Part shown: piece by piece, positions 5,779 through 62,461 of the stretch
Layout: every line of letters begins with the position of its first letter
Numbering within the stretch: position 1 is the first letter of the stretch
Assembly (NCBI GenBank): GCA_973895155.1
Contig: OZ316891.1
Span: 23,745,899-23,809,898, forward strand
Direction of reading: 5' to 3'
From: Marsupella aquatica
Lineage: Eukaryota > Plantae > Marchantiophyta
Length of the DNA stretch: 64,000 nt
Notes under the pieces: generated by a model
Told to the model about the DNA's origin: nothing
The model's database searches: none
What the model saw: the letters and a program-made list of their open reading frames with translations, nothing else
Translations under genes and position numbers: made by a program

Positions 5779-6134
5779 CTTCTCTTACTACTTGATCCCA
5801 GCCCGGCTGGTGCAAACTAAAAACTTGCTAAAGAAGAGGCCCTGAGCTCCCCGCAGCCCAGGTATTTATCCTGGTAACGGATCCGCCTAATTCTTTGTAG
5901 CGTAAGCCTAATCTACCTAATAGTAATCTACTTGCCCGGATCTACCTATGTACAGCAAGGTAGGGGCACAAGTGTTGCTCCTACCAGTGGAACCGCAATC
6001 CCACTAAGCTAAGTGTCAGGGCCGCTCCTGGTCCTGATCCTAATCTTAAACTTGGAGATCAGCGCCCGCCCTGCCCACTCACGCCTCCTCCCTCCACGTC
6101 CGCCCTTCCTAAAAGGAACGGCGCCCTTGCACCG

Positions 6135-11543: not shown

Positions 11544-11547
11544 GTTT

Positions 11548-11567
11548 TGGCGCTAGATGGAGGGGGC
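11548..11567 (+). promoter_or_regulatory. primer binding site of copy C (probably tRNA-Asn)
   Basis: TGGCGCTAGATGGAGGGGGC after a 4-nt spacer from the LTR end. Confidence 0.8.
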
Positions 11568-11612
11568 ATTTCTTAAGCCGTGAGATATGAAGTTAGAAAG
11601 GAAGCATAGGTA

Positions 11613-37946: not shown

Positions 37947-40525
37947 TGTCACGTCGTAGGCTTCGGCCTTAACTCAGACTTCAGCTTAGACGGGCACATC
38001 CCTCGTAAATCTGAGGGTTCGGGCAGGAAGGGAAGCACGTAATGCACCTTATTCTCGTAAACTAGCGCTAAGTGCGCATACTGCTAAATACGGACACCTC
38101 CTAGGTATGGTTTGTGTTCCGCCGCCGGAACGTACCCTAGTCGATAGCAGGATCGACCCCGGCTTAAGGGCTTCTAAGCCTTCGTGCTGTCCGCCTTCGA
38201 TCCGGATTCGATGATACAGGTCCTCAACCCGTGCTCGCAACCACTTACCCGCAGGCTGCACCCTGTGCACGTCTCGGGTAGTGCGTTCGGCCCGGCGCTG
38301 CCACCCATATACGAGAAACCCACACACATATGCGCACACATGCATACAATCTCGATTTACACGAAGGAAAAATGATGGGAAAGGATTTTTACTACAAAGG
38401 GAACATATGCGTACACTTAGTTGACACGACAGCCCTGGAATGCACAGGTTCAAGGCCAAGGGTGCACACTACAACGGATCCCGGCTCCGCACTCGCCCGG
38501 CAAGCTTAGTCCTACCCCCTCCCCTTGGTACTCTGTCATTCCCAGAGGTCGGGACTCCCCGCATGTCCCGCGGATGTCCGACTCTGAAACTAAAAACCCC
38601 CCCTGCCTCTACCGAGGGGTGCACTAAATACTAAGAGCCGAGGAACGGGGTGTCCTCCCGCCGAAGATTCGCTGACCAAGGTCCTAACTAAGCTGACAGT
38701 CAGGCCGGAAAACGGTTGTGTCTTATTAGAAGATCCTAATCTATGCAGGCTGGACAGCAGGGCAGCGCTGCCGTACCTAAGGCAGGTGCCTGTCCCAAGA
38801 GCCTGACTAAGCCAATCCTAATCCTAATCTATTCCTACTCCGCCGCTAATGCCTGGCACGCTTGCCAGAGCCGCCCGAATGGGAACGGCCATCCCGCTGC
38901 CTTCGAAGCCTGTCATTGTCCGCTTTGAGGAGCTGGACCTGGTCCAGCAGAGATTCGTTCTCTCGCCTCGCCGTGTCCGTCTCCTCTGCTGCCTCCTGAC
39001 ATGCCTCCTCCAGCTGCTGGGCGTCGCTCGCCAGTTTACTCGCCAGCTGGTCCTGCTTCTCGGCCTCGGTTTGGAGCCGCGCCATCTCGGCCTGCAGCGT
39101 GGCTATCTCCGTCGCGTCCCGCTGGGCTCGCTCCTCGGCCTCCTCCAGGTCTTTCTGCCAGGTGACAGCTTGTTTCTTCAAACTGTCAATCTGGTTCCGG
39201 AGTCGTGTAATCTCGGCCTCGTTCCCAGCTTTGGCCTGTTCGGCTAGGGCGGTAAGAGCGTACGCCTTTGCTAACAACTCATCGGCGGCTGCAACCTTGG
39301 GTCATAGTTGCAGAAGCTCAGCCTCTTGAGCCGCCACTTCGTTCTTTAGGTACACGGACTCCACCCGGTACCGCTCTATCCTCTGAAGGGCCTCCGACTG
39401 GGCCCGCCCGGTCAAGGGTGGGGTAGCCTCGTCGTCATCGCTAAGATCCACAGCGTTGATGACGGAGCGTACCTGTGCTGGCTGGGTGATAGGTGGTGGG
39501 GTTTGGCTAGGCTGCGGCTGAGGCTGAAGCTGAAGCTGAGGTTGCATGGGCACGGGTACGGGTACGGGTACGGGTCCGGCTGAGTTGGTCATGTTGGTTG
39601 ATGGCCGAGTTCCCATGAAGCTCTGTAGGTGCTGGTAGAAGTTCTCCGAAGCGAGTGCGGACGCCCTTGTCGAACGGTTGGTACTGGACTCGCCGTTAAT
39701 GACTGCCCGAACCTGGGCAGGGATGTGGTCGAAGTGATGTCGCTGCAGGTCGATTGTACCCGGGATATTGAAGACCTCGTCCGGAAGCCGAAGCAATGCT
39801 TCCCAGAACCCGATATATTTGTCTCTGTCAAAGAAGTACCCAGATACCTCAGCTGGTTGGTAAAGCTCCCTCTGAGACGGGTAGTCAAAGTTAAGGACGT
39901 AGTGGTGTCGTCCTGCTAGGCGGATGGCTCTCTCGTATTCGCGTCGATCTCGTATCGGCGCGGGTTGGCGTGTTTCAATGAATCGGCCAAGTGCCTTCCG
40001 GTAGATAGGAACTGTGTCCAGAATCGAATGGCCGAGCTGGAGAGGATCGCGTGCGACATTCAGAGGAGATAGTAGTGGCGACCTAGAGAGAACGAGAGAG
40101 CTGGGGTCGAAGCTGGCGTGCGGACTGATGGACTGGTGCACTACAAAGGGTTGGCTCCCCTTTTATACTTTGAGGGCTTGTCGATCCCCGACGTCTCCTC
40201 GACGCCCATAGGTTGAACCGCTCACGCTTGTGGTGTACCGGCCACTCCGCCGGTCTGAGTCAGCGTGCGTCAGTGGCCGCTTCCTTAAGTTCATTATACG
40301 GACCCGAGGGAGGGGCCCCTCCATGCTCATAACCCGGGTGTGCGAATAGCGACCCGCCGCCAGCCCGAACCTGAAGTCCCCCTTATTGCCTAATGATGTC
40401 CTACCCCTAATGATTACCTAAATACTATCGTTATGCTAATAATAGCGGCCTAAGACCCACCTAACGCGCGTGCCGAGCGCAGTTAGACTGAATCACTCAT
40501 TAACCGCCGTACCGGCGGCGTCACA
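37947..40525 (-). mobile_element. solo LTR of a third family (2579 bp) carrying its own ORF
   Basis: On the minus strand the termini are TGTGACGCC...ACGTGACA, with TSD CATTC (37942-37946 / 40526-40530). TATAAAAG near 40160-40167. Confidence 0.85.
38846..40141 (-). pseudogene. family-3 LTR-encoded protein (~430 codons, one internal TGA at 39302): globular N-terminus, P/Q linker, coiled coil, basic tail
   Basis: ORFs 39302..40141 and 38846..39277 are in the same frame, 8 codons apart. The start codon is uncertain (GTG; first ATG near 39616). Confidence 0.7.
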
Positions 40526-42953
40526 CATTCCTCAGCTCTTGCTTCCACTTCTCCCTCTCTTTGATCGCATCGGCCAACTCTCCTTGGGTCCGCGTCAGTA
40601 GATTCTCGATCATCCGGTTTTCAGATTGTGCGGTATCCAACTGGCCCTGCATGATATTTAGCTCATGCCGCTTAATCCGCAGCTCATCTTGGGCTTTCTT
40701 GGCCGCCCTCAGGTCCTTGATTTTGGCTTCCCTTTCCCTAAGCCGACGGATGACCTCGTCCTTCTTGCTTCTTTCCAAGGCCACCGCTTCTTCCAATTGG
40801 CGCTTCTCCAACTGCTCCCTATGGAAAAAGGGTCCTACCTCCAATTCCTCCCCAAAGATGCCGAGCGCAAGTTCCCCACACATCTCACCATACTCCCTGG
40901 CTCTATTCTTAGCGTAGGTGGAGTAAGTAGAAGTGATCGGCATCGCCCATCGCGGCCTCTGCTCCCAAGCCGTCTTGCGGGTCTCTTCAATCGTGGCTAG
41001 AGGTTTGCTTCCTTTTTCGGCTAGCCGCCTCATGTCCTCCGGCCAATCTCCTCCTGGTAAATGCTTTTCCCTAGCCAGGGCTGCTTCCTCTTCCTGCCTG
41101 ATTCGCTCCTGAAATTCCAGCGCCGTCTGTTTTATGCCGTCAAAGCTCAGGGGAGCAACATCTAGTGGAGGAGACTCAGGGCTACTCTGCTGGTTGGGGT
41201 CTCCTCGTACTACCCTTGGAAGTGTGGGGATAAACCGGCCACAGGTCCTTACTCCTGGAACGTGATGGTCCGACCCATAGCCGGAGTTATCATGGCCGCA
41301 GTCCTCCACTGCCTCCTCTACTTCTTCTACTTTCGGCTTCTCCCTCTCTTCTTCGTTGGTAGGAGCTTCCGGCAATTTTGCCTCAGATTCAGAGCTTGAG
41401 ACTCCGGTAGAGGGGTCTTCCCTTCTAAGTCTGCTTAAGTTGACCTCTGGGGCAGTGTCCTGCATTGTTGCCACTGCCGTTGTCGTTGCCGATGCCGATC
41501 TCTTTTCTTTCTCCAGCAGCTTCAGCAGACTCTGCATGCCTGGTTGCTGCATCGGCAAGTCTTCCTTCCTTGGCTTAAACACCTGCTCAATTGTAGGGCT
41601 AACAGGTGGTTGAGGCTTTTCTGCTACCGGCCTGGGTGCTAGAGCTTCCTCGGGTGTCCTTACCTTCAGGGGAAGTACTGGGGCAAAGGTCTGACCTCTG
41701 GCATACCGGCACAACAGCGGCATGTGATAGCCAAGCCGCGACACGCTCCCCATGCCGATTACCTGTTGCTCCTCCTTTAATATCTTCTTCAATTGGTTGA
41801 GGAGGTAGCTGTTGTAGTCCCGGCTTGGGTCTGGCCTTTCTGCCAGATAGACTTGTGCCTTGCCGATCTCCGCTCTCGGCAAGTTACAATGCATGGTTAC
41901 CCGCAAGAAGTCGATCATCTCTCCTATGTGCGGGTTGGTGCATGTGTTCCGGAAGAAGCCATTCTTCGTTGATGGTCCGGGAAACGACCGGAACTCCTTG
42001 TCAGGCAAGGTTTTCCTGGTATCAACCTTGGTCTTATTGCCTATCGATAAGCCAAACACTTCGGCAATTACCTTGGGAGTAAGATAGAAATCCTTCCCAT
42101 ATATTCTCGTGCAATTGGTCTCGGGTTCCCATGACCCCATGAATTCTAATAGGTCTGAATCCGGCACCTCCGGCTTCAGCCATGGTAATCTTACAAAGGC
42201 TTCCAAGCCGGATCCGGCCATGAAGCCTTGGTACTTCTTGGTCTGCATGGCCGTAAAGCATGCATCCTCCTCCCGTGCAAAATGTAGTTGCACCTCCATT
42301 GGTAGAGTTGCCGCCCAGCCCTTCTAGGTGTCATCCCTGGTTGGAATGGCGTTGATGGGGTTGCTTTCCTCCTCCTCGGCTTCGCTCTGCCTCCTGCTCT
42401 GCTGTTCGGCTGGTTTCTTTGGTGCCGCCGACCTCGTTCTTTTTGCCGGGGTGGCTTCATCGTTGACGACTCCCTTGCTCTTCATCTCAGCTACAGTGGA
42501 AGTTTCTCCTAGCACTGTTGCCTGGGTCCACCTTTCTGTGCTACCCTTTAATTCCCAGTGTATGTCATTGCAATTCTTGATGGCCTCTCGGATGCCGATG
42601 ATGCTGTCTTTGCAAAACAGAAGATCGTCAAGCTGATTGGAAGTAGGAGTCCACAAGAACTTGGCCTTGATGAGTTCGCCTCCTAAGAAAGCCGTTTTCT
42701 GCAGCTCCCACAATCTAGCGAGCTCCTGTCGTTCTCGAGCTGCTCTTTCTGATTCTTCATCCTCGTAAGTCTTGATGTACTCAGTTGCCCGTTCGAACAG
42801 GCATCCCCAGAAATGTGCCGCTTGATTGACGTTGCTCATACCCTCCTTAGGTCGATCATTGGTATAGGGTTTTGTCCCTATACTAAGGTGTTTCCAGGGT
42901 GCATCCTGCTTTACCCCCTTAACTGGCCGAGTGATTCCTGGCTAGGCATCACA

Positions 42954-43112
42954 GGTAATAAGACCAAGGTTGATACCAGGAAGACCTTACTTGACAAGGA
43001 GTTCCGGTCGTTCCCAAGACCATCAACAAAGAATGGCTTCTTCCGGAACACCTTCACCAACTCGCACATTGGAGAGATGATCAATTTCTTGCGGGTGACC
43101 ATGAACTGTACT
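42954..43112 (+). pseudogene. older LTR-ORF fragment, right part, truncated
   Basis: GNKTKVDTRKTL...FLRVTM continues 25021..25248; homology ends near 43112. Confidence 0.82.
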
Positions 43113-43755
43113 TGGCGCTATGATGTTTCATGGTTGTTTTTCATTACGGTATTCAGTTTTGGGTAGCGCCTGGCGCTATGATGTTTTCACGTATGAGTTG
43201 ATCGCTATGTTTGGGACCCTGGATGATTGAAAGTGAACATTGCATTGGATTTAGAGAGTTTTTACCCATTGACTAGCCGGGTTATTAATGGAATATTCTC
43301 TTTGCACATGAAATTTTGGGATATATTGTTGACGTTTTGGTTGAAATATTTTCCTGTTTCCTTTTTGCTGTTTCCTATTTGGATTTTTCTGTTTCCTGGC
43401 ACGGTGGTGATACCCAAAAAATAAGGACAGAGTTCCGATTTGGTTGAGGATATGTTTGAGTGGTTGTCTGCACTCTGTTAATTCTTCTTGTAATTATTGT
43501 CGTGATGCCCAAAACAAATATCATTGATTGGCATATTTGTGTTGTCGAATTTGGAACGAAGATCCTTGGGTTAACTTATCGCGTTGAATCTTCTTGATTA
43601 GTGTTTAGGTGAACGTTCTTGGGTCAAAAATTTTGTGAATATATTTTTCTTTTGATCAAAGAAATAAAATCAGTTTTTCCATCACTATTTTGTAGGTTGC
43701 TGAGAAAGACCTCACCATCTCATTTATTACTCCAGGTATCCACTCTTATTTTGGA

Positions 43756-44295
43756 ATGGCCGTCATTGAGAACCCTGTCTTTACAAGGTTAGCGATGTCA
43801 TTCGACAAAGAGAAGAAACAAATTCAGCAGAAAAGTGGCCAAAAGGAATCCGGATTGCTTTTGGATGGACTTCCTGATGAGATTGTTGAAATGTTCATTT
43901 GGCCCATTTTGAAAGTTTGTTGTATAGAGGATGCATTTGATTCCTCCAAGAACCAAGCTGATGAAAGATTGATGCAATTAAAAATAATGGTGTGGCTTGG
44001 ATGCACCTCCAAGAAATGGAACCAGCTCGTAATTTGTACACGAGTCTTGGGTATTCTTAGACTAGCAAGAAGCCAGTTTGAGGAAGTAAATAAAATGCTG
44101 ACAAGCATTCTCGATGGAAAACCCCTTCAGAATGTTCATATTGAAGCTTTTGTTAGGATGGAAACACCGAATCTTCCTCCAATCGATAATATAGGTTTAT
44201 TTTCAAGGTCTGACCTAAATCGATTTCAAGAAGACTGGCACAATCTTGAGAAAGATGAGCAAGCAAGGCTCTTGGAAATGTATGGGGAAGCTTAG
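43756..44295 (+). CDS. 179-aa protein with an F-box-like N-terminal motif
   Basis: LLDGLPDEIVEMFIWPIL...LGCTSKKW resembles an F-box with an insertion. Candidate upstream acceptor TTTTGTAG near 43695. Confidence 0.45.
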   Translation: MAVIENPVFTRLAMSFDKEKKQIQQKSGQKESGLLLDGLPDEIVEMFIWPILKVCCIEDAFDSSKNQADERLMQLKIMVWLGCTSKKWNQLVICTRVLGILRLARSQFEEVNKMLTSILDGKPLQNVHIEAFVRMETPNLPPIDNIGLFSRSDLNRFQEDWHNLEKDEQARLLEMYGEA

Positions 44296-44822
44296 AGTCC
44301 GGTTTAGAGTCCTTCCATTCATGTTTTGGACTGCTCATCTTGAATGGGCTCTTTGTTAGAATGGACTCTTTTTAAGAATATCAACTTAGTTTCGAATGAA
44401 TAAAGAGTTTTGTGATTCGACCCTTGCATCAACCACATTTGCCACGCGTAAAATCTATTTGGTTTAATACAAGGACGTGGGGATATGCCTTATCTACATC
44501 TAGTCAGAAACAAAGTCCTATCAAGCGAAAAAAGTATAAATAGACCTCCGGACTCCAACCCTCCGCTTTTGGATACACCTTATCGCCTGTGGATACGAAG
44601 GTGATAAAGTATAAATAGGAGAGCCTGATCAGAAAGTTTACGCTCATTTCTTATCCTTCTCAACTTCGCTTGCCTCCATGTTTTTCTTGGGCTGCAACAT
44701 CTTTATAGCTTTTTGTATTTGCTCCAATCAAAATAAAAAAGCAGGTAAAAACTCAAGAAACTCTCCCCTCCTTGTCGCACTTCATTGTTGAATCCTGAGT
44801 GCAAAGAACATAACATTTCAAG

Positions 44823-45182
44823 GTTGAATACGAGATGGGATACCGCGTATCCCATCTCGCATCCAACACCCTCTTTTTTAGTATTCCATCGGAACCTCCT
44901 AGCTGTTTGTTGACTCTAAATACAAAATGGGATACCACGTATCCCATTTCAGATTCAACTTTGTCTTTCAGTGCAGATTACTAGAAATTCCTGATGTTTA
45001 GGGTTTAGGGTCATTGGGGAGGATCGTTGCAAGAAGAGCCGCATTGGATGATGTTGGATACGAACCGGGATACCCCGTATCCCATTTTGCATTCAACTCC
45101 CTATTTTTCATTCTTTGAATCAGACTCCAAGCAACTGTTGATGTTGGATGCGAAATGGGATACCGCGAAATGGGATGCGAAA
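44823..45182. repeat. array of four ~45-bp palindromic units (GAATACNAAATGGGATAC-nnn-GTATCCCAT...)
   Basis: Units near 44823, 44918, 45053 and 45143; the last is truncated and rearranged. Confidence 0.75.
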
Positions 45183-45490
45183 GAGGAAGGGAGGAGGAGG
45201 GACAGACGTACCACGGAGGAGGGAAACACGAGAGTGAGAATGAAAATTATGGAATAAGTAGGAAATAAAGTTATATTGAGCAACAGAGGTTAGATAGAAA
45301 GTTGCATGTAAAATTCACAAGTGATCACAATAAAACAATACAATACATATGTCATGAGTATGACTCATTCAAAAGTGAATGGCAAATATAAATATAGACA
45401 ATCCTTTTTTTTATATCACCAAACATGAACAAATCAAATATAACATGAACAAATGTCTAGGCTGGACCCAAGTGCATATAAATATGTCCC

Positions 45491-48400
45491 TCACACTTGG
45501 TCCTCATCGGCCTCAAGGTCATCTAGGTCTGATACAATAACATCTGGCTTCTCAGAAACAATGGAACGAGAACGTGGCACATAGGTGATGACAATTGACC
45601 ACTCGGTGTCTAAGGGGTATGGAATGTAGAAACATTGCTCCAAGTGTGATGGGAAAGCAAATGGTTCTGACGTTTGCCAATGAGATGCTTGAACACTAGT
45701 GGCACTTGTCTTCAACCGTGTAAACCCACTCTCATCTTGAAGTACAGTGCAATTTTGACCAACAAGGTTCACTTTGAACCACTTGCACTTGAAGACATAT
45801 TCCTCAAACTTTGAATGGTTGTCATATGATACCACCAAGATCTCCTCTATCTTCCCATAGTGTGGCACAACATCTCTAACAATGTTCCTGTCATGGCGGC
45901 TGCTTCTGGAGTCTTGAGAAAATTCCCCTTGAACTCCACAATCAAAAGTACGACCCCTCTTCTCATCAAGGGAAGAAACCCTGAAATTAACAAAACCCAC
46001 AAATTTTTATTACACTGTAAAAGATACCATTAATGTAATAATCATCAAAATATGACACCTATCCCTAAATAGCCAAAACCCACATGGCCTATGGCATAAT
46101 TATAGAAGCCAACATTACAGTTATGGATGTCATTAATGATAATAGAAAGTTTTTAAACAATAGAAATAACTAATCAAAATAAGGTCTACATGAATTAATA
46201 GAGGAAGAAAGGTTAGGTACTAGTGGACCTGAAGTGTCTCCCTTGTGTCCACATAGCCGTCTTGGATGTCACCACTCTCAAAGGGCCATGAACAATGGTC
46301 CGAACGTCATCTGTGATGGTAGGAAAGTGGGACACATCTCCTCCTTGTGTCACCATGTCATCCAACTCAAGCAACTTTTGCTTCATATACTCATGCATCT
46401 TAGGAAAAATTCTTGCTCTTTGACTTGTTCTCTTGGCATTCTCATAAAACTCTCTCCGTTTCTCCATGATATTACTATTACTCAACATAAATGTTGTCAA
46501 CTGTGACCACTCTGTTGATGTCAACATGCGTGTTTTTGTGGCACCTGTTAAACGGTCCTCCTCCTCTTCTCTTTCCTCCATCCAAGTACGTGGACAAGTA
46601 GGATCAATGGTGGCCAAGATGTTACTACAATAAATCATACTCTCTGCTGCCAAGTATCATGTAGCTATGCTTCCCTCCACCAGTGCACGGTTACGTACAT
46701 AAGCCTTCAACACCGCCATGTAACGCTCAAGCCAATACATCCATCTACAATGCACTGGACCTGCAATGGCAACCTCCCGCACAAGATGCACAAGTAAATG
46801 AACCTGACAATCAAAGAAGGAAGGAGGAAGGGCTTTCTCCAACTTGCATACCACCTCAGCTGCCAATACCTCCATCCCAGGGATCTCTTCTACATATATC
46901 TCCTTTGAGCATATCCATCTCAACAAACGACCCAATGACCAGATGGCATCTTGCACTTCTTCACTCCCTATACCTATAATTGCCACTGGCAATATATGCT
47001 GCAATAGGCGATGATAGTCATGTGTCTTCAGATATCGTGGCCACTTGTGATTGTCCTCCATCCCAAAAGCTTTTCGAAGGTTGGCACCATAGCCTGTAGG
47101 AAACCGCATCTCTCCTATACGGTTCCAAAATTCACGTCTTTGGCCAACACTCAACACCCAAGGAGCAGAAGGACGATTCTCCACACCTGTGATAGGATCA
47201 ATTGTCACCCAAACATCTGGATGCATTTTCATCTCCTCGCATGCCTCCCTAAAATTAGTGTCCTTCTCCCCATAAAAATGCTTTATCAAAGCCTTCCCCC
47301 CACATTTCCCTCTATGTGCATGGGGTCTAAAAGATGGCGGATCTTCAACTCAGACCAATAGGGCAAAGTGGCTAGTATACTCCACCTGGTCAAACCTGTC
47401 CTATCAAAGGTGAAGGAATCATTTGGGTCTGCCACCCTATCAGCTAGTGACTTCCAATGTGCAAAACTTGTTGCATCAGGAATTTCACGCTCATCACCAA
47501 ATGGCATGTCAAAGGAGGAGAATAGAAGTGGGTCAAACCTCATCTCATGCCCCATGGGAAGAAACTTTGTATGCCCAATATAAACAATCTTTCTAATCCA
47601 TGAACAATATGTGGCCATGTCCTCTAAGCTTGGGCCACAAGTAGAGTAAGCTTTGTACCCCTGAGTTTGCAATCCAAAGACAAAACCAAACCCTGCTTAC
47701 ATAGAAGAAATCAAACCATGCAAACTTTATGTTAGAGTTGTCACATGAGAAACATCAATAGGAACTACACATTATTGAAGGGTTGCAAATGGCATGGAAG
47801 TCATCTTACCAGGATAGTCATGCATTGTCCAACAAATGATCCCTCTCAATTGAAAGACATGTGGAAAACCTCCTGTAATTTTCCTGCCATCATATGCCCA
47901 CACTCCATTCCATAATTTTTGAAGTTCTCCAACCAATAGTGCCAAGTAAGTGTCAAAGTTCTTCACCTTTTTTGGACCTGGGATAATCAAAGACAATAAA
48001 AGGAACCCCTTCTTCATGGATAGCCATGGTGGGAGGTTATAATTCATGACAACCACAGGCCAAACTGATGTAGGTTGCCCCTTTCCTCCAAGTGAATGAG
48101 GGCTAACTCCATCAGATGCCAATCCTAGCCTCACATGGCGAGGATCATGTGCAAAGTCTGGCCATGTTGCCTCAATATGTTTGTGAGCAGGGGAGTCAAC
48201 TGGCAACCGCATGACACCAGACTCTGATCGATGAGTCTTATGCCATACCATCAACTCTGCCAAGTCAAAACACCGATACATGTGCAACAACCGAGGAATG
48301 ATGGGAAACCAACGAACAGCCTTCCTTGGCACCTTCTTTGTTAGCATGTTGGGGTCATAGCGAGGCTCATCACATGTTGTACATTGTGTCATGTTTGCAT

Positions 48401-50311
48401 TGGCCCCATGAAATAACATGCAATCATTCACACATGCATGAACAATATGATATTCCATGCCAATAGATGAGAGAACACTCTTTGCCTCCTTCCAAGTTGC
48501 TGGCAACACATTCTCAGTGGGCAACATAAGGTCATGGCAAAGTGCAAACATATCAGATAACAAGACATTGCTTGCCTTGTGTTTGGCCTGTAGGTTCATC
48601 AACCCCAAGATGGCTGAAAGACGACTCAAACGAGCACCCTCATAGATAGGTGTTCGGGCATGTTCCTCTGCTTCTTCCCATTGGCGTTGTCCCTCAGGGG
48701 TATGTCTTGGGCGTGGATCATTGGGGGGCACCTGCCCTTCATTGGGAAGGTCATCACCAAGGTTGTCGGCACCAAACCAATCAACCATAAAGTCATCCAT
48801 GGCTCTATCCTGGTCATCAGTTACTTGTTCATCCGTCCAAGGTACCTCTTCATCAGGGTTACTGCTTCCACTAGCACTTGATGAGGAGTGTGACTCTAAT
48901 CCATGTCCTTCTTCTGGCATACCCATTTCTCGATATGTTGCTCTCAATCTCCGTGGTAACATATTTGGAGAGGGTCGCACATTCTAAAAACAAAGCAAAC
49001 AATTGAAAGTTATATTGCAAAGAGAACACACACAAAAATGGGCTAGGGGTGTGCAAAAATGAAATAATATTGGTTGTGGTGCAAATACAAAATGTGGCCA
49101 AAGGCATATGTAGTGTCCTTTGATATACAACATACCACCTATGACCCTTAACTTAACCCTAATCCCACTCATAGTGAGTAAATAACTCATCCCCTGAGTT
49201 AATGGTCCTTGTTGCTACAACTAGGCAATGGTCATGATGATATGTCTGGCCATAAGGTGCTGGCGGAGGACCCTCAATGAAAACCCACTCACAATTTTGC
49301 CTACGCTTAGGGCGAGTCCCCACGGTACTGTTTATGAAACCAACAATATTCCCAGTCCGTATGGGGTCCCCATCTATGACACGCTGCTCACTATACCTTC
49401 TAGTGTTTCCATCAAAAGTATCCATGTCCAATGCATAAGTCTTCCACTCAGGGTGTTGTGCAAGGATCATGTTCCAATGTCTTCTCTTGTAGATGGGTCC
49501 ACCATAAGGAAACAAAGTAGGCCCCTCTCGGCCGCGTCCACCTCTACCACTCTCGGCGTCCACAATGATGTCCTCACAGGCAAAAACTCCATAGCCATGT
49601 CTATCCCCAAGTGTGGAAGGTTTGATAACCCAACATCTACCCCAAACCTCTACCTCCGCACCGTAGGAAAGCTGTTGTGGCAAACCAAAAGTCTCAGGAT
49701 CCCAGTCCTTGATGACAGGGACACATATGCCAGTGAACTCACAATCACCCCACCGACCCGTAACCACTGCCTTGTACAAATCAGTATCCCCTCGGGCCTG
49801 CCTCTTGGAACGCTTTCTCCCTCTTGGGACAATAGCCTCAACCCCAACTTCCCTAGGACTGGTGGGCCTTGCCGCTAGACCCAAGGCTTTTGAGAATGCA
49901 TTGCCTATAGCATCTAGAACACCTTGTGATGGGACATAGGGTGCTTGTGCCGCAGGTCTAGGCCTATTGGATACCTATTCCACCGAAACCAAAACAAACA
50001 AAAGTAGGTGTGAAATTGCAAACCTTCAACCATTGAGTAATGGGAATAGGGTAGGAAAACTAAGGCATAACACTTACCATATGAGATGAAGAAGCCCCTG
50101 CCGTATGACGTCCACAACGCCCATATCTCTCAATATGTTGGGCACATATGTAAGATTTTTGGGAAACCTGACCCACACATTTGGAACATTCACAAAGTTG
50201 ACGGGGTGGACCGCGAGGAGGAGGTGCGGTCGTGTGATGTTGAGGTGGAGGTGGTGTATCTTCATCAGAGGAGGACGAGTCTATGGTGGAGATTTCAAAA
50301 GATGAAGACAT
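45491..50311 (-). pseudogene. tnpD: TnpD-type CACTA transposase, spliced (exons ~50311-50078, 48983-47810, 47692-~46229, 45980-45491); frameshift near 47295 and stop at 46657
   Basis: Exon 1 has a CECSKC...H..RYG transposase-associated motif. Then PIYEGA, HACVNDCMLF, RHVRLGLASDG, YNLPPW, HDYPG, LDPMHIEGN, FPTGY, KTHDYH, PPSFFD..VHL.VHL, RWMY..ER, EGSI and FKCKW/EPF (Transposase_21, DUF4218 and DUF4216-like). GT-AG sites preserve frame. Confidence 0.92.
49159..49974 (-). CDS. SET-domain (lysine methyltransferase-like) exon inside the first transposase intron; with exon 1 gives ~349 aa
   Basis: IKPSTL..HGYGVFACEDI, YGG, IDGD...GNIVGFINS...NC and LVVATRTINSGDELFTHY. Acceptor AG at 49976-49975 is in phase 0 with the exon-1 donor. 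Frame open to the stop at 49159. Confidence 0.85.
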   Translation of the reverse strand, partial: VSNRPRPAAQAPYVPSQGVLDAIGNAFSKALGLAARPTSPREVGVEAIVPRGRKRSKRQARGDTDLYKAVVTGRWGDCEFTGICVPVIKDWDPETFGLPQQLSYGAEVEVWGRCWVIKPSTLGDRHGYGVFACEDIIVDAESGRGGRGREGPTLFPYGGPIYKRRHWNMILAQHPEWKTYALDMDTFDGNTRRYSEQRVIDGDPIRTGNIVGFINSTVGTRPKRRQNCEWVFIEGPPPAPYGQTYHHDHCLVVATRTINSGDELFTHYEWD

Positions 50312-51986
50312 ATCCCTTGTAACAAGATATAATTAAAATGGGCATGTTATGACCAAAACATACCACAAAATGATATAAATCAAAGTTCCCAAATAATGAT
50401 GACAAGAAACCCAAACCAAAATGACCATAGCAATAAAAAAGGTACCTTTATGAGACCCGGGCTCAGCAGTGCCAATAGGTCTTGTGGCTCTAAGATAATT
50501 AATGAACCCAATCTGAAAGTATGAGGGAAAAGCTGCAACCATTCCATGTATATGTAAGCACAATAATCTGGACCAGACAAGAACAAAAAACCCTATATAC
50601 ATGTCCCCTTTATACATAGTGGCAACCAAAAGTGTTAAGTACATGAAAGGAACACTTTAGCCGATCATGCAATGTTTACCTTTCAGATGCCCGGGCTCTC
50701 ACAATGCATATGCATTAGTATCAAATCATCAAAAAGTGCCGCACCCTGCAAGCTATCATATATTCCCCTCCTTTGTTAGCAAAACCCACGCCAATCCCCT
50801 TTTGATTCATAAACCCAATGAACCTCTCTTAAACCCAAAAGGCTGCAATATAAATCTCATGAAACCTTGCTTTGTCTTATCCAAACCTTCAACCCCAAAC
50901 CGCATCCTACCTATTAAACCTAAATCTGACTTACACACAAACCCAAACCTTTCTTCAACCCTAGAGACCTTTCTATTTAAAAACCCCAAACCCTAAAACC
51001 CTAAACCCAAACCCTACTTATTTCTTGTAAACCAAATCCCACACCTTTATTATTTCTTCTAAACTAATGTAAACCCAAACCTTAGCCTAAACCAACACCA
51101 TACATAACCCATTAACCTGAAATCTGCCTAACCCTGCAAACTCGCCTTCAACTATTATCTAACACCCAAAACATGGCCAAAAAGCATTCCAAATATGAGT
51201 ATAGAGGGGTCCACTTCACCTTTGAAAAAAACCCTTTCAAATGAAACCAACATTCCCCCAGGACGAGTTGCCAATGTCTTGCGAAGCCGCTTCCTTCGCA
51301 AATACCATCACAAATTAGAATTGAGGTTTGCGAAGCTGCTGCTTTCGCACGACCTTCAGAAAAACAGAGCCCGAGAGCATTTCTACGAGAGAGCGAAGGT
51401 GTTGCAAAGCCTTTCACGTCGCAATGGTTTCGCAAAATTGAGAAACTATATGCGAAACAAGAAGAATCGCAAATTGCAAAACGGGTTGCTTTGCAAGTCT
51501 TTCCCGCTTGTACTTTTGCACTCGGCCGCGGCGTACTCAGCGGCATTTGACAAATTTCAAGCGTAGGGAGGGAGAAGGGAGCTCGCGCGCGCTCGGGGGG
51601 TGGCTTGGCTATGGATTCCAGTGGAGCAAATGGAGGTGATGGGGCAGGGGTGAGTGACAGTGGCAATGGGAATGAAGGCAATGGGGAGCAGGAGAGGAAT
51701 CGATGGACCGATTTGATGGCTGAGCACCTCAATGCAGCACAGTTGAGCCACTTAGATTTGACTACACCAGCAAGGATTGCTTCTTTGAGTGCAATCCTTG
51801 GGCAAGCCTTGCAAACGGGAGTAGATGCAGGGAACATTGCAAGGGAGGAGGAGCAAAGGAGTGCAGCTCAACAGAAGGCAAGAGAGAAGAAGCGTAAGAA
51901 GGAGGAGAGGGCCAAGGTAGGAGTAGTCTCACCTGCTGCCCTAGAAAAGAAGAGGAGGAGAGAGGAACGAGATGAGATAAGAGCAC

Positions 51987-54900
51987 TGTGGTGCGTCCCA
52001 TGGCTCCCTAAACCCAAGAAACCCCCCCAGCACAAGCCGATTCCCGCAGGTTTCGCGCTTGGCGGGGCCGTTTCCGTGGCTTAGCGGCATGGGACGCTGC
52101 TAACTTCTTCCTCTACATCTATTAACATTTTACACACATATACTGGACAGATCCTTCATCGGGTCATGAGATATGAAGCCGGCCTACTCTAGGCCTTCCC
52201 TTATCTTTCTCTCCTTCTGGTTAGGTATATTTGGATTTCGCCGCCGGAATGATCCCCAATAGGCTTGGTTAAGCCGCTAAGACCTCTCTCAACTCGACAC
52301 ATCCAACTCTCACTCCCTTGCTTACCTTCCTTTCCCTATTAGTTGATGTGGGCACTCTTCACACAAGTTAATGCGACACACAAATAGTAAAATGACTCCT
52401 TCTGACTGAGTCATACCATGCACTTGCCATACAAACAGTACATCTCATACACAAGCTCTGCGAACTAAGCCGTGAGGCCAACTCTATTCAGCTCTTAGGC
52501 ATGAGGAAACATGAATATACACAAGGTCATGGTATGACTAACCGAGAGCTTCTCTTACTACTTGATCCCAGCCCGGCTGGTGCAAACTAAAAACTTGCTA
52601 AAGAAGAGGCCCTGAGCTCCCCGCAGCCTAGGTATTTATCCTGGTAGCGGATCCGCCTAATTCTTTGCAGCGTAAGCCTAATCTACCTAACAGTAATCTA
52701 CCTGTCCGGAGCTACCTATGTACAGCAAGGCAGGGGCACAAGTGTTGCTCCTACCAGTGGAACCGCAATCCCACTAAGCTAAGTGTCAGGGCCACTCCTG
52801 GTCCTGATCCTAATCTTAAACCTGGAGATCAGCGCCCGCCCGGCCCACTCACGCCTCCTACCTCCACGTCCGCCCTTCCTAAAAGGAACGGCGCCCTTGC
52901 ACCGTCACGATACCGGTGGTGGATCCTCAATGGACGCCCCCAACGCTTCCTCCTCAGCCACTGCCGTTGGCCCGCCTACTGACAGATTACCTGCCCTTGA
53001 CCGAGTCAACTCTCCCTCGGCCTGACTGGGTCCATCTTCGGCTTCGGCCTCGACACCAGCCTCGGCAATACCCACGGCTTCGGCTTCAGCCACTCCCACG
53101 GCTTCGGCTTCACCTTCTTCTAGGGTAGTTGGATCCTTAGCCGTGACCCTGTCTGGGGTCGGTGCTGGGTCTACCTCCTTGGTCACCACGGCCTGTGGAG
53201 TCGTATTACTCCTTGACCCAGAAGGTTTCCGCTTCTTCTTCATTGCCGGCTCGGCAGCTGGTCCCTTCCCCTTCCCACTTACTTTCAGCACTGGTGCAGG
53301 TGGCGCGGTTTGTTCTTCGGCCAGTACCACTCCTGGTAACTGGTTCGCCCCAACGGGAGATGGACCTGCTGCAGCTAAGCATTTAAATACTGCGGCTTGT
53401 TTCTTTAGCCGCTCTGTTTGGTTGTTGGCCCGCCGCTGTAGGTTCTCCATCTTCCTCGTGATTTCCTCCAACTCCTCTTGGGTCTCATCCAGGTCCTTAC
53501 GTGCCCCCTCCAGCTCTTTGTGGGCTTCCTCCTGCTCTTTGTGGGCTTCTTCCAATTCCTTCTTCAAGGTAGCCCTCTCCTCCTGGGTTGCTCTTAGCTC
53601 TTTGTCGAGCTCTGTCACGATTTCAGACTCCATTTTATCCATCTTGGCATAAGTCTGACCGAGCATATCGTCCTTCTCCTTTAGGTCGGCTTTGAAGCTG
53701 GCCGTTAGGGATGCAAGCTCCTGCTGCAGCGCAATAATCCCTTGATAGGATTTCCCTAACTCGGCCTCCTTCTGCTCAAGGGCTCCGCGGCTTTTCTCGA
53801 GCTCCCCCTTCAACGCCCATTCCTTTCTTTGGGTCTCCGCCATGACCCGGTTGTTGACTGCTATATGGGCCTCCTCTGCGTTTCTCAGCTCCTTCTTCCA
53901 TTTCTCCCTGTCCTTGATTGCGTCGGCCAATTCTCCCTGGGCCTGAGTCAGTTTATCCTTGATAATCTGACTATCCGACTGCGCTATGTCCAACTGCCCC
54001 TGCATGATATTTAGCTCATGCCGTTTAATCCGCAGCTCATCTTGGGCTTTCTTGGCCGTCCTTAGATCTTCAATCTCGGCTTCCATCCTCCTAAGCCGCC
54101 GGATGACCTCGTCCTTCTTGCTTCTCTCTAAAGCCACCGCTTCTTCTAATTGGTGCTTCTCCAACTGCTCCCTATGGAAAAAGGGTCCTACCTCCAACTC
54201 CTCCCCAAAGATGCCGAGCGCAAGTTCCCCACACATCTCACCATACTCCATGGCTCTATTCTTAGCGTAGGTGGAGTAAGTAGAAGTGATCGGCTTCGCC
54301 CAACGCGGCCTCTGCTCCCAAGCCGTCTTGCGGATCTCTTCAATCGTGGCTAGAGGTTTGCTTCCTTTTTCGGCTAGCCGCCTGATGTCCTCCGGCCAAT
54401 CTCCTCCTGGTAAATCCTTTTCCCTAGCCAGGGCTGCCTCCTCTCCCTGCCTGATTCGCTCCTGAAATTCCTGCACTGTCTGTTTTATGCCGTCAAAGCT
54501 CGGGGGAGCAACATATGGTGGAGGAGACTCAGGGCTACTCTGCTGGTTGGGGTCCCCTCGTACTACCCTTGGAAGTGTGGGGATAAACCAGCCACAGGTC
54601 CTTACTCCTGGAACGTGATGGTCCGACCCATAGCCGGAGTTATCATGGCCGCAGTCCTCCATTGCCTCCTCTACTTCTTCTACTTCCGGCTTCTCCCTCT
54701 CTTCTTCGTTGGTAGGAGCTTCCGGCAATTCTGCCTCAGATTCAGAGCTTGAGACTCCGGTAGAGGGGTTTTCCCTTCTAAGTCTGCTTAAGTTGACCTC
54801 TGGGGCAGTGTCCTGCATTGTTGCCATTGTCGTTGTCGTTGTCGTTGCCGATCTCCTTTCTTTCTCCAGTAGTTTCAGCAGATTCTGCATGCCTGGTTGC

Positions 54901-56567
54901 TGCATCGGCAAGTTTTCCTTCCTTGGCTTAAACACCTGCTCAATCGTAGGGCTAACAGGTGGTTGAGGCTTTTCTGCTACCGGCCTCGGTGCTGGAGCTT
55001 CCTCGGGTGCCCTTACCTGCAGGGGAAGTACTGGGGCAAAGGTCTGACCTCTGGCATACCGGCACAACAGCGGCATGTGATAGCCAAGCCATGACACGCT
55101 CCCCATGCCGATTACCTGCTGCTCCTCCTTTAGGATCTTCTTCAATTGGTTGAGGAGGTAGCCGTTGTAGTCCCGGCTTGGGTCTGGCCTTTCTGCCAGA
55201 TAGACTTGTGCCTTGCCGATCTCCGCTCTCGGCAAGTTATAATGCATGGTTACCCGCAAGAAGTCGATCATCTCTCCTATGTGCGGGTTGGTGCAGGTGT
55301 TTCTGAAGAAGCCATTCTTCGTTGATGGTCCGGGAAACGACCGGAACTCCTTGTCAGGCAAGGTCTTCCTGGTATCAACCTTGGTCTTATTGCCTATCGG
55401 CAAGCCAAACACTTCGGCAATTACCTTGGGAGTAAGATAGAAATCCTTCCCATATATTCTTGTGCAATTGGTCTCGGGTTCCCATGACCCCACGAATTCT
55501 AATAGGTCTGAATCCGGTACCTCCGACTTCAGCCATGGTAATCTTACAAAGGCCTCTAAGCCAGATCCGGCCATGAAGCCTTGGTACATCTTGGTCTGCA
55601 TGGCCGTAAAGCATGCATCCTCCTCCCTTGCAAAATGTAGTTGCACCTCCACCGGTAGAGTTGCCGCCCAGCCCTTCCAGGTGTCATCCCTGGTTGGAAT
55701 GGCTTTAATGGGATCGACCTCCTCTACTTCGGCTTCTCCTTGCCTCCTGCTCTGCTGTTCGGCTGGCTTTGTTGGTGCCGCCGACCTCGTTCTTTTGGCC
55801 GGGGTGGTTTCATCATTGACGGCTCCCTTCCTCTTCATCTCGGCTGCCGTGGAGGTTTCTCCTAACACCGTTGCCCGGTTCCACCTTTCTGTGCTACCCT
55901 TCAATTCCCAGTGTATGTCGTTGCAGTTCTTGATGGCCTCTCGAATGCCGATGATTCTGTCTTTGCAAAACAGAAGATCATCGAGCTGATTGGAAGTAGG
56001 CGTCCACAAGAACTCGGCCTTGATAAGTTCGCCTCCTAAGAAAGCCGTTTTCTGCAGCTCCCACAATCGAGCGAGCTCCTGTCATTCTCAAGCTGCCCTT
56101 TCTGATTCTTCGTCCTTGTAAGTCTTGATGTACTCAGTTGCCCGTTCGAACAGGCATCCCCAGAAATGTGCCGCTTGATTGACGTTGCTCATACCCTCCT
56201 TAGGTCGATCGTCGGTATCTACTCTCTCCCCGAGTGCTTGCCTAAATAGCTGACAGTAGTTGGCCTCCCGTAGTCGTCTGCCTAGTTCGTGCTCGCAAAT
56301 GAGCCACCATCTTCTGCGAGCGCTCCTTACCCCTCTCCTCTTCCGGCCCTTCCTCCCGTTGATCCTTCCCAGCCGCCGATGCTTAGCGCGCCCTAACCCT
56401 AATCGAGTTTTCACCCCCAGTGTTTTTACCTCCGGCCTTGGCCCGGGTTCCATAGTTGCCCCTAATTATTTATATTTTCTTGTTTTGTCCCTATACTAAG
56501 GTGTTTCCAGGGTGTATTCTTGCTTTACCTACTTAACTGGCCGAGTGATTCCTGGCTAGGCATCACA
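51987..56567 (-). mobile_element. solo LTR D of the main family (4581 bp)
   Basis: Family termini, TSD AGCAC (51982-51986 / 56568-56572), no adjacent PBS, PPT or gag. Confidence 0.95.
52905..56453 (-). pseudogene. LTR-encoded protein in solo LTR D (1182 codons; two neighbouring CGA>TGA stops near 56082-56090; 1053 codons uninterrupted)
   Basis: ORFs 56088..56453 and 52905..56066 are in frame. Confidence 0.88.
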
Positions 56568-58419
56568 AGCACAGCGGGAGGAGCAGTGAAAGAAGGAGGA
56601 AGAGAGGAAGAAGCTGCCTATGATTGCCTTGATCGAAGGCATTCCTACTGAACTGGCCTACACCGGGGCAAAGAGCACTATCAGGCTTATGGTGCGCTCC
56701 AATTTTGCACGAGGAGTTGAGTGGGGGAAACTCAGCAAGGCAGACCAGAAGAAAGGAATGAGTCAAATCAAAGATTCATTTCGAAACGGAGCAAAGATTG
56801 ATGAACAGTGGCTTGCAGATAGAATTTCCAATTCAATGTCTCAAGCACGGTACCATGATAGGAAGAAGGTAAGGGCCTACCTGGCAAACTTGGAGGAGTA
56901 CAGAAACGTGAGGAGGCCACTGCAATTCACTGAGGACATGTGGAATGCCTTTTACAAAGTGGAGGTGCAGATGAGAGCTGCCAGGAACCTTCTCTTCTGG
57001 AAGGAGATGGAAGCCAAGGCACAGAAGGCCGGGAAGTCCGACCGAGAGCTCAAGGCAATGGCTGAGAAAGTGTCTCACATGCAGCACATTGTGGATGAAG
57101 TGGGTGCACCACCCCAAAAATTCATCCTTGCAGCTGAGCGAGTCAGCAAACGGCCCAAGACCACGCACAAGATGGGCCAAGGTGGACTTCCCGGCCTCAA
57201 AGCACACTTTGTGAGTGGGCCCTCTCCTCTCCTCCCCTGCTTCTGTTTCCTTGCTTTCAATTGCTATCCAAACCTGCAATGCCCCCCTGCATACCTCTTG
57301 TTTCTTTCTTACGGCCTGCCTTGTACTTTAGGTCACCCTGACACATTGCGTGCCTTAGAGATTTCTCGGAATTTTTTAAAAACAGAGTTTGCAAAGCTTT
57401 TGCGATGCGGGTTGCTTTGCAAATGTTTCGCAAAGTCTATCATGGCATTTTTTAAAGTTGTAAATGCGAAGCTATTGCAAAATAATTCGCTTCGCAAACT
57501 ACTTCGCAAACAGCCAATTTATTTGAATTTGCGAAGTGGGGAGTTTTGCAAGTGTGTATTATGTTTAAAAAAAACCGCTAAGGGTTATTGAGCCCAGTTT
57601 TGTGTTAGGGGGCACCCTATTAGCACCTCCATGCATTTTTCTTGGGTTTATAGCATATTAACCTCGATTGATTTTGGTTTTGGAATGTTTGGTTGTGGTA
57701 GTATAAGAGGTACCGCAGGAAGATAACAGCAAAAGAGATGGAGATAGGATCTGCGCATGGAGCCAAACATCTCTTTGACTTGGTTGACGCAGAGTTGGCA
57801 ACTATAAGTGCATGTATCCCCTTCAGTTTTTCCCACCCAATCCACTTATCTTTTCATTCCGTAAACCTAAACCAATTTGGCGTTGTGCTGTGCAAACAGG
57901 ATGATGAGGATGCCAGTGATACCAGCAGCACCGATGAGAACAATGAGGGGACCACGACAAAGGGGCCCAAGGTAGGAGGGAGTAGTGGATCTGGACCAGT
58001 AGGAGGAGTTTCCCAGCAGGAGGGGGAGGAAGAGGATGAGGACGAGGACGAGGAGGAACCAGATGTGGAGGAGCAGCCAGCACCACCTCCTGTGCCACGT
58101 CCGGATCGTCGCAAGAGGGACAAGGGGAAGAGGCCGGCGACAAGGAGTAGGAGGACCCCATTCTAGAGCTTGGTGGTGTAGTGCCTATGGGATGCCCATT
58201 TACTTAGTGTCGTATATAGTTTTGATATGGGTAGTCTTATAGGGACCTAGCTTGTCATATGACACCCATCTAGGGTTTAGGGTTTAGGAAACCCTAATTT
58301 TTGTGTACCTATCAATTTTCTATAAAGCAATTTTGATTCAGACCTCATTCTCCGTGTTGGACAACAAGACCCCAACCATAATTCAAAACTCTAAATCTAA
58401 ACCCTAGCCTCAAGACATC

Positions 58420-58849
58420 TTGCGAAACCTATGCGAACAACCCAATTCGCATATTTACCATATTGAAGGTATCGCAAACATTATGCAAACCACATACGTT
58501 CACAAAAATGTGAAGCCATGTTCATGGCATAACTACCATTAACTTAATATCGCAAGCCGATTACCAAACTTCTGGGATTGCAAATATTTAACTGCTTGAT
58601 TATTATCGCAAGCCTCTCGCGACGCCCACGGAGTTGCTTAAATGTGAGTCCTTTGCGATTCTATTAGTGTCGCAAGTTGCGAAGGCATTGCAAAGGTCTT
58701 GCGAAAGACCGGATGCGAACCTTTGGGCTTCGCAGTTTGCGATTCTATTGCAATGCGCGATACTTCGCAAAGGCGAGTTTTGTTTTTTGATTTCCTTTGT
58801 TGTTTGCGATGCTTTCAAGTTCGCAAAAGGTGTAGGTAGTGTTGTAGTG
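58420..58849. repeat. CACTA subterminal repeat region and right TIR
   Basis: Many TTCGCAA / TTGCGAA motifs in both orientations, ending in TAGTG followed by ATT. Confidence 0.8.
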
Positions 58850-59050
58850 ATTCCTCCAGCAATCCATGCATTTGCATAGTATCCTCAATCCTCGCAATTT
58901 TCTTTTTGAATTTTCTAGTAGTTTCACACACTCTCACATAAGAAATTCGACAATGCAAGCTTTTACCTTCAAATGAGCTTGCCAACAAACTATTCACATT
59001 CCAAGCCATCAGCGGGTCATCAGAGACGGCATCCCGCCATCCCGCATTGT

Positions 59051-61691: not shown

Positions 61692-62461
61692 GATTGCAAT
61701 TCTTCCCTCTTGACTAATGATATACTCACAATTGAAGGACTTATAGTTCCAAAATCATATCTCTCTCTATCAACCAAAACTTAGACATGCACAAGTTAGC
61801 TCCAAAATCCATGGATCCCACTTGGTATTCGACCCACCAAATTTGGCTCCAAGGCTGCCCCTCCCTGCAATTCTGGCACATTTGGACTCCTCATTGAACA
61901 CTGGACACAGCTATCTTCACTCCCGGAGAACAAGACATTGGAAAAACCAACGGAGATCTTCGGGCGGGCCTACATGGTAACGTTGTTCTTGGCATTAAAA
62001 ACCGGGGCCTTCATCTTCGAAGATCTGTCGGGGTTCGCGGAGAACCAGGTGTCTCTGTCATAGGAACTACATTAGGCTTCTTTATAAGTAGAGGTCGTTT
62101 AAGAGGTTTACTTGGAGAGACATAGTATGAAATCGAAGCACCCACAACACTCCTACAAGACTCTGATTTCTCAGATTCTGAGGAAAATGAAATCTCTGGC
62201 ACTACTCTCTGTGAGATGGTAATTCATTCATCACATGAGATGGAATAAATTTTTGAACAACATCTGGCAAAGATGCATCTGAACTGTAAATTGACTCATC
62301 ACTTGAAGACGCCATAGAGAATCAAACAAGGGTTGTATAGGAGTACGTATTCCTATCCAACAGAGATAATTCAGATTACAGTATTCTATGAAAACAACTA
62401 CTCAATACTGAACGAACCTCAAAGTAATCGCGAGAAATGAAGATGAAAAATAGATGCGAGC

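Follow-up and report, generated by a model that had tools for sequence, protein, structure and literature searches.

Organisation of the locus

We analysed a 64,000-nucleotide (nt) stretch of the liverwort Marsupella aquatica (contig OZ316891.1, forward-strand positions 23,745,899 to 23,809,898; hereafter the window, numbered from its first letter), in which a CACTA transposon carries an exon for a SET domain alongside the exons of its transposase, TnpD. The TnpD/SET unit is read on the minus strand. Coding exon 1 (50311-50078; 234 nt, 78 amino acids (aa)) starts with an acidic, Ser-rich stretch followed by a CxCxxC-x13-H motif, and a direct check of the minus strand confirmed that it ends in phase 0 at the donor ATG|GTAAGT. 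The SET exon (49159..49974, acceptor AATAG|49974) encodes a 62-aa basic linker, a conserved pre-SET-like beta region and a SET domain ending ELFTHYEW-D-stop. Translation of exon 1 plus the SET exon yields 349 aa with a single terminal stop, as the original prediction had it. TnpD exon 2 (47810..48983) begins at the phase-0 acceptor TTTAG|48983, has its first ATG at codon 8 and encodes Transposase_21; exon 3 (46229..47692) holds the end of Transposase_21 and DUF4218, and the last exon (45491..45980) holds DUF4216. In Pfam searches the TnpD frames match PF02992 (Transposase_21) with an expectation value (E) of 7e-39, PF13960 (DUF4218) at 6e-28 and PF13952 (DUF4216) at 3e-8. Both acceptors proposed earlier are open and in phase 0, and a scan of 50077-48900 finds 49974 and 48983 to be the only T-rich AG sites that precede a phase-0 frame of at least 100 aa.

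Exon 1 had been described as bearing a transposase-associated motif. The CxCxxC...H arrangement is indeed present, with Cys/His residues invariant in 13 of 13 exon-1 sequences, whereas a match to the Pfam transposase-associated domain (which we take to be PF13963) is absent. Its status as the first exon of the gene is also doubtful: two conserved, donor-ending blocks lie upstream, so that exon 1 is probably not the first.

TnpD of the window copy is broken within exon 3, as foreseen, by a frameshift near 47296 and a stop at 46659-46657. In run X1 the entire depth at 47296-47297 (2029.5 + 606.5 of 2636) lacks two of the window's bases, and the frameshift is therefore atypical of the family; the stop is a sense codon in four of five loci checked. 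The contrast between an intact SET exon and a broken TnpD had been noted earlier, and we rejected it as a sign of selection, since zero lesions in 816 nt is the chance expectation (P about 0.60) given two in about 3150 nt of TnpD. With the frameshift, the TnpD stop, and an insertion and a stop in a divergently oriented gene, the window copy of the element is dead. Rfam gave no match within 43000-59000 of the window.

Splice sites across related loci

Comparison drew on 41 metagenome loci among the matches listed, from at least 596 pattern hits; these resemble Sphagnum gene models, belong mostly to one subfamily and do not represent 41 independent events. In each of the 15 loci whose flanks could both be matched, exon 1 closes with a GT donor and a single open phase-0 AG stands before the SET exon. 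At the TnpD acceptor, 20 of 22 loci read TAG, and AAT follows in all 22. Against the window, five chosen loci are 68-75% identical over exon 1 and the SET core, 48-53% over intron 1 and 32-40% over the gap between SET and TnpD (the TnpD column of this comparison was disregarded, those loci ending early). The three splice sites are thus conserved while the introns drift. Two public gene models, P0002 (Calypogeia, 351 aa) and P0004 (343 aa), splice exon 1 to the SET exon at homologous sites, and the same join as predicted for the window is found in public gene models of both Calypogeia and Sphagnum, which are models rather than reads. Exon 1 is quite probably spliced to the TnpD acceptor at 48983, judging from these patterns; its splicing to the SET acceptor is likely, and more so than the join to TnpD.

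In the window and every one of the 22 loci listed, the SET frame closes at once in a stop codon; the gap from there to the TnpD acceptor measures 139-178 nt and varies in both length and frame, so that no full SET-transposase fusion is possible. A SETMAR-like in-frame fusion is thereby ruled out. SETMAR, which the original prediction had invoked, is a fixed host gene in which SET is fused in frame to mariner; it too combines SET and a transposase in one locus, whereas the bryophyte locus is multi-copy and mobile and a stop codon closes its SET ahead of the transposase exons, so the structural parallel does not hold.

Two further sources of splicing evidence were set aside. Gene models P0029 and P0050 join a truncated SET, with its terminal Tyr motif lost, to TnpD and are likely annotation joins, and contig joints were rejected because the contigs are of unknown or DNA type and their joints reflect diverged introns. 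Separately, a minus-strand, phase-1 GTGAGT donor-like site lies at 49292 within the SET exon, at Asn-Cys-Glu codons, and recurs in locus L002; it is near the point where P0029 and P0050 exit SET and could give rise to a truncated isoform.

The SET domain and its active site

The exon at 49974-49159 matches PF00856 (SET) at E 1.6e-5 with 25.7 bits, against a curated cut-off of 22.4. This profile check had been proposed with the original prediction, and its SET-like domain is borne out: the score ranges over 25.7-26.7 bits across tests, four of five homologs tested lie above the cut-off, and with E allowed up to 10 PF00856 hits every one of the 27 sequences in the alignment (best 7.5e-8), while none of the 27 matches the PR domain PF21549. 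Searched with a limit of E 5, the exon-1-bearing homologs P0002 and P0004 match SET and no other Pfam family. The top ESM Atlas matches are SET clusters, one at 0.97 from Streptophyta (probably the domain's own cluster) and those at 0.95-0.96 mostly haptophyte. Two AlphaFold2 models have a mean predicted local distance difference test score (pLDDT) of 40.6 and 40.0, too low to show the fold, and a fold search with the second, uninformative at this model quality, returned no match. A scan that sees fairly close relatives only gave 10 pattern matches in viral contigs and 28 in prokaryote genomes, none of them confirmed.

In the window, the SET motifs read GYGVFA, YGG, GNIVGFINS and ELFTHY, in agreement with the earlier description of GxGVFA, YxG, GN..FIN and ELxxxY with INS in the place of NHS; post-SET cysteines are absent, as they are from the viral protein vSET. 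Motifs were tallied over 53 aligned sequences with gaps set aside. The Gly-rich motif is kept in 40 of 42 and 41 of 42 sequences at its two positions, the YxG Tyr in 45/46, the Asn in 46/48, the terminal Tyr in 39/42 and the Trp in 43/45, and the active-site motifs are retained as far as Riccia, at 39% identity. In the predicted protein the Asn is residue 293 and the terminal Tyr residue 346. Named SET motifs are GXG, YXG and NHXCXPN (PMC7412744). GxG, YxG and the terminal ELxxxY are found here and NHxC is not, and for this reason the protein is not a canonical member of the SET lysine methyltransferases. The PR/SET domains of PRDM proteins likewise combine a SET fold with an incomplete NHxC, and several are active in spite of the importance attributed to the motif, which shows that PR domains without a full NHxC can be active (PMC4146578); with no PF21549 or PDB match, the resemblance is one of style only. 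Given the residues retained, we regard catalytic activity of the bryophyte SET protein as probable, if a little less so than the splice from exon 1 to TnpD.

Distribution of the family and selection

Of 1585 candidates, 40 were SET homologs with E no higher than 0.001, and a profile found 57 among 7984. The named ones come from Calypogeia, several Sphagnum species and Riccia sorocarpa, the nearest being a protein of the leafy liverwort Calypogeia fissa; independent lineages number about three to five (the window group, Sphagnum, Riccia, and P0017 and P0021). TnpD comes next in 23 of 27 loci with enough downstream DNA, and exon 1 precedes SET in 18 of the 20 testable; the four loci lacking TnpD downstream have a truncated SET match. 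Because SET served to find the loci, they establish TnpD as its companion; they do not imply that each relative of this TnpD carries SET. The Riccia gene model P0050 contains SET together with Transposase_21 and DUF4218. The search for other genomic copies with SET in the same place, proposed earlier, thus reveals a family trait and not a one-off capture. In run X6, over 45659-49870, summed contig depth reaches thousands to tens of thousands on coding sequence and 5-40 on non-coding sequence; this is the depth of a strongly amplified, diverged subfamily, SET exon included.

Comparison of the SET core with 21 of the 41 loci gives proportions of nonsynonymous and synonymous differences (pN, pS) of 0.163 and 0.47, and corrected distances dN of 0.185 and dS of about 0.7, hence a dN/dS of about 0.26, a value biased upward by dead copies (stops in 9 of the 21). 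Differences in SET fall mostly on third codon positions (for example 37/25/71). The ratio is about 0.12 for the TnpD core (7/19 loci), about 0.18 for exon 1 (19/19, with pN 0.146 vs pS 0.52 against 19 loci) and about 0.32 for the divergent gene (9/11). Among the loci the ratio drops from 1.0 at dS below 0.05 to 0.33 at dS above 0.4, a trend that we read as copies decaying neutrally once inserted, superimposed on selection that acts in active lineages. The dN/dS check suggested for the SET segment therefore comes down on the side of purifying selection rather than neutrality. SET and TnpD also diverge in step, at 72% and 66-81% identity to Sphagnum-like copies and 39-42% and 44% to Riccia. Within the same elements pS is 0.47 for the SET core but reaches 0.62 in TnpD and 0.64 in the SET linker; the lower synonymous divergence of the core suggests either added constraint on the nucleotides or an exchange of modules.

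A midpoint-rooted tree, without a clade test, was built from 21 SET cores, those of the window and of 20 chosen homologs. The window groups with P0007 (95/93), and Calypogeia P0002 joins them less tightly (86/91). The two Riccia rows are far removed from the other 19, which span both Calypogeia and Sphagnum. Since the liverwort element is closer to moss elements than to that of Riccia, with a window dS to Sphagnum-like copies of 0.7-1.4, the sequences suggest either horizontal transfer or old paralogous lineages.

The CACTA element and its surroundings

The terminus upstream of the transposase gene lies at 58836..58849 on the minus strand and starts at 58849 with CACTACAACA. The same start occurs in L006, L008/L039, L029 and L040, five locus termini in four different flanks, and because the shared terminus stands in different flanks these are dispersed independent insertions. 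The other end of the element was not found within the window; L029 has a degenerate candidate at 16135, and its 6243-16135 interval appears to span a complete element of 9.9 kb, degenerate at its right end and flanked by an ACA/ACA 3-bp duplication (one case, with the right boundary set by eye). Subterminal repeats of the TTCGCA/TTGCGA type occupy 58420..58830; counted per kb, TTCGCA-type motifs number 23 in 58001-59000, 13 in 51001-52000, 11 in 57001-58000 and at most 4 in any other kb. Such repeat clusters are also present at both ends of L029. With its TnpD domains, CACTA terminus, subterminal repeats and dispersed insertions, the element belongs to CACTA/EnSpm.

Upstream of exon 1, on the plus strand, lies a divergent accessory gene that is TnpA-like by position. 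Its 5' part (51611..51986) matches 11 loci at 45-55%, and its remainder (56568..58166, with a stop at 56587-56589 and later exons at 57702-58166) has a main part 57-62% identical to 10 loci. It is found upstream of exon 1 on the opposite strand in 11 loci, and is one open frame in L033 (383-1615, minus strand) and L041 (655-1884, minus strand). The protein has long Lys/Arg runs, no match in Pfam or among PDB sequences and no usable ESM Atlas match. TnpA-like proteins are seemingly confined to flowering plants (10.64898/2026.08.24.746577), and the gene may be a bryophyte counterpart of TnpA or a new accessory protein. It is split in the window by a retroelement-like insertion of the long terminal repeat (LTR) type (51987..56567), which is foreign to the CACTA element, has TG...CA ends and is flanked by a 5-bp duplication, AGCAC. 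This 4.6-kb insertion contains a 1058-aa coiled-coil open reading frame (ORF; 52905-56081) with no domain match and has no pol gene inside; contigs of four runs diverge from the window at its edge, 51986. It is a very abundant repeat, with related copies near 2269, 6000-11545, 17765-22400, 25249-29825 and 36053-43117.

The two donor-ending blocks mentioned above are non-coding, conform to GCAYTG..RGCCC..AG|GTA and lie on the minus strand within 50443..50707 (50707-50677 and 50472-50443). They occur in 15 of the 41 loci, twice in the window, and are conserved whereas their flanks drift. They are likely the ends of leader exons, and possibly act as a cis element.

Downstream of TnpD, on the opposite strand, a 199-aa ORF without Pfam match (43696-44295, plus strand) stands beside short inverted repeats (44820-45170), in a stretch of the window covered in all four runs. 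L029 has an opposite-strand 143-aa ORF in the same place (14696-15330), likewise next to short inverted repeats; the two ORFs do not match each other and are possibly variable cargo. Just past the CACTA terminus, 59051-61754 (minus strand) holds degenerate gag/protease-like retroelement frames, assigned by eye.

A model for the SET protein and its alternatives

We propose that one promoter region would drive the divergent accessory gene in one direction and the leader-exon 1 unit in the other. In this moss and liverwort CACTA family the SET exon would sit in the first coding intron of the transposase gene, such that use of the proximal acceptor would give the SET protein and use of the distal acceptor the transposase, with a common Cys/His N-terminus. 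The 349-aa product, a predicted S-adenosylmethionine-dependent lysine methyltransferase, would then mark the element's own chromatin against silencing, recruited by the exon-1 module common to both products, which would contact either DNA or the divergent protein, the latter binding the TTCGCA repeats. The accessory proteins of Spm are anti-silencing factors that arise by alternative splicing, and sequence-specific binding in Spm is a property of the TnpA helix-turn-helix domain (10.64898/2026.08.24.746577), so that exon 1 is as likely to be a docking module as a DNA reader. We place the probability of the whole chain, from shared exon 1 and two acceptors to a SET writer that keeps its own element expressible, at roughly 0.4. 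Its weaker links are catalysis, the choice of a histone as substrate, an effect that is activating or anti-silencing, and recruitment through exon 1. A bolder version is possible but doubtful: a land-plant CACTA histone methyltransferase of a His-less, tail-less SET class, made as a splice isoform of the transposase, in which the shared zinc module would bring the writer to the sites of the transposase and the element would write its own protective mark, the unit having moved horizontally between peat moss and leafy liverwort.

Several observations tell against the proposed chain. None of the 13 exon-1 proteins (among 89 candidates) is joined directly to TnpD, TnpD's own ATG is invariant in all 22 loci, and exon 1 has no Pfam match with E of 1 or below. 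The SET score is marginal, Calypogeia P0002 reaching only 21.7 bits, below 22.4, and PDB sequence searches reached no solved SET structure. The NHxC His is found in 0 of 48 sequences (Ser in 39, Asn in 5) and the Cys is nearly always missing. The chain also stops three residues past the terminal Tyr, and a region completing the cofactor site as in PRDM9 is therefore missing unless a partner supplies it; in PRDM9, residues after the pseudoknot build much of its binding sites (PMC4146578). Neither the substrate nor the sign of the effect is constrained by the present data, and vSET, a viral minimal SET protein, silences (PMC4023394). Finally, close copies are near-neutral (ratio 0.75-1.0 at dS below 0.15), though this is expected of dead copies.

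Some of these points would suit a catalytically dead protein, acting as a decoy or reader on histone tails or occupying a host silencing complex. The His and Cys of NHxC and the post-SET region are missing, surface stretches such as HWNMILxQHPEW are highly conserved too, and FOG-PR is a SET-fold domain that binds no cofactor (PMC4146578). However, the Gly-rich motif, the Asn, both Tyr and the terminal Trp persist from the window to Riccia, residues that an inactive domain could shed without cost, and we see inactivity as a real but minor possibility. Alternatively, an active enzyme might have a non-histone substrate (the element's own Lys-rich accessory protein, the transposase or a host silencing factor) and tune transposition. 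The Lys/Arg runs of the divergent protein would offer targets, a shared N-terminus would co-localise SET and transposase, PDB sequence and Atlas searches found no close kinship to a known histone-specific family, and many SET enzymes act on non-histone proteins (PMC4023394); published SET-carrying transposons are nevertheless interpreted as putative chromatin modifiers, and this alternative appears unlikely. Distinctly less probable is a repressive writer that would limit the element's own activity or silence competitors or host defence genes. The minimal SET without post-SET cysteines resembles that of vSET; the scan above confirmed no relative in viral contigs. vSET methylates H3K27 and silences (PMC4023394), and H3K27me3 or H3K9 methylation lies on bryophyte transposons (10.1101/2022.10.24.513474), but the transposon regulators tested, VANC and TnpA, activate.

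The architecture itself can be read differently, whatever the function: exon 1 might serve SET only, a leader exon being spliced to 48983 and TnpD starting from its own ATG (MLPRR), with SET as a nested gene. The codon-8 ATG, present in the window and in Riccia P0050 as well as in the 22 loci, the leader-like donors upstream of exon 1 and the lack of exon 1-TnpD models all fit such an arrangement. Yet the seven codons upstream of that ATG stay N-V/I-R-P-S, as a protein would, with synonymous Arg/Pro and conservative V/I and N/D changes; the TnpD acceptor is in phase 0, matching the exon-1 donor; and plant TnpD proteins usually start with a Cys/His module. We therefore hold a nested gene to be improbable. 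Still less credible, and in our view very improbable, is that SET is a piece of a host gene picked up recently and evolving neutrally. Fragment capture is common among CACTA elements, and the ratios of close copies are near 1, but the SET segment occupies the same position in the window, the Sphagnum-like loci and Riccia, diverges in step with TnpD at a dN/dS of about 0.26, and has no recognisable non-transposon parent among the 57 homologs.

Relation to known systems and significance

The original prediction knew of no described SET-carrying CACTA family, which proved too strong. Plavaka, of the EnSpm/CACTA superfamily, has in red algae an accessory gene, PAG2, that likewise encodes a PF00856 SET and is proposed to be a chromatin modulator (bioRxiv 10.1101/2025.02.11.637652). 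As described there, PAG2 forms a gene of its own, with SET fused to an N6-adenine methylase, in a three-gene cassette, and we liken it to the bryophyte SET by description only. The bryophyte element instead has a lone SET behind a Cys/His exon, inside a transposase gene with a CACTA terminus, in land plants; no N6-adenine methylase lies beside SET, PF00856 being the only Pfam family found in the SET exon and the homologs tested. HarbingerS SET genes and SET captured by Helitrons (10.1101/2025.02.11.637652) and oomycete MuDR SET genes (PMC12730594) are also borne on DNA transposons, of other superfamilies; the passages on the HarbingerS and MuDR genes describe accessory genes and do not mention a shared-exon arrangement. 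Our literature search met no bryophyte CACTA with SET, nor any transposase gene in which an alternative exon encodes SET, although Repbase Reports, subscription journals or preprint supplements could hold one. SET-carrying DNA transposons are thus known, and what is new is a land-plant element with SET as a predicted alternative exon of the transposase gene.

A parallel in gene organisation is offered by maize En/Spm and Arabidopsis Spm3, where TnpA and TnpD arise from one gene by alternative splicing (10.64898/2026.08.24.746577, PMC13547354). In both cases one transposase locus yields, or here is predicted to yield, a transposase and a regulatory protein; unlike in En/Spm, the alternative product is an enzyme-fold SET protein instead of the DNA-binding TnpA, which is a sequence-specific anti-silencing factor (10.64898/2026.08.24.746577). 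The bryophyte gene in the TnpA position is separate and head-to-head, whereas the separate genes of Arabidopsis are head-to-tail (PMC13547354). The term "SET domain" is absent from the main texts of both sources. With VANC of VANDAL elements the bryophyte protein may share self-directed anti-silencing (bioRxiv 10.1101/2025.02.11.637652, PMC12730594); VANC, however, is a DNA-binding factor of a MuDR element that induces hypomethylation, and the accounts cited describe no SET in it.

The plant transposon anti-silencing factors tested so far, VANC and TnpA, are DNA binders reliant on host enzymes, and transposon SET genes have been catalogued in algae and oomycetes in accounts that describe no assays. 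The small (349 aa), well-conserved candidate writer described here, with usable genetics in nearby hosts, makes a self-written histone mark directly testable. If the proposed chain is correct, alternative splicing would tie expression of the transposase to that of an enzyme rather than a DNA binder, and the protein would gauge how far a SET active site can stray from NHxC. CACTA is the most abundant classified repeat type in Sphagnum, at 6.8% (PMC9946827), and a self-protecting family could therefore matter to that genome.

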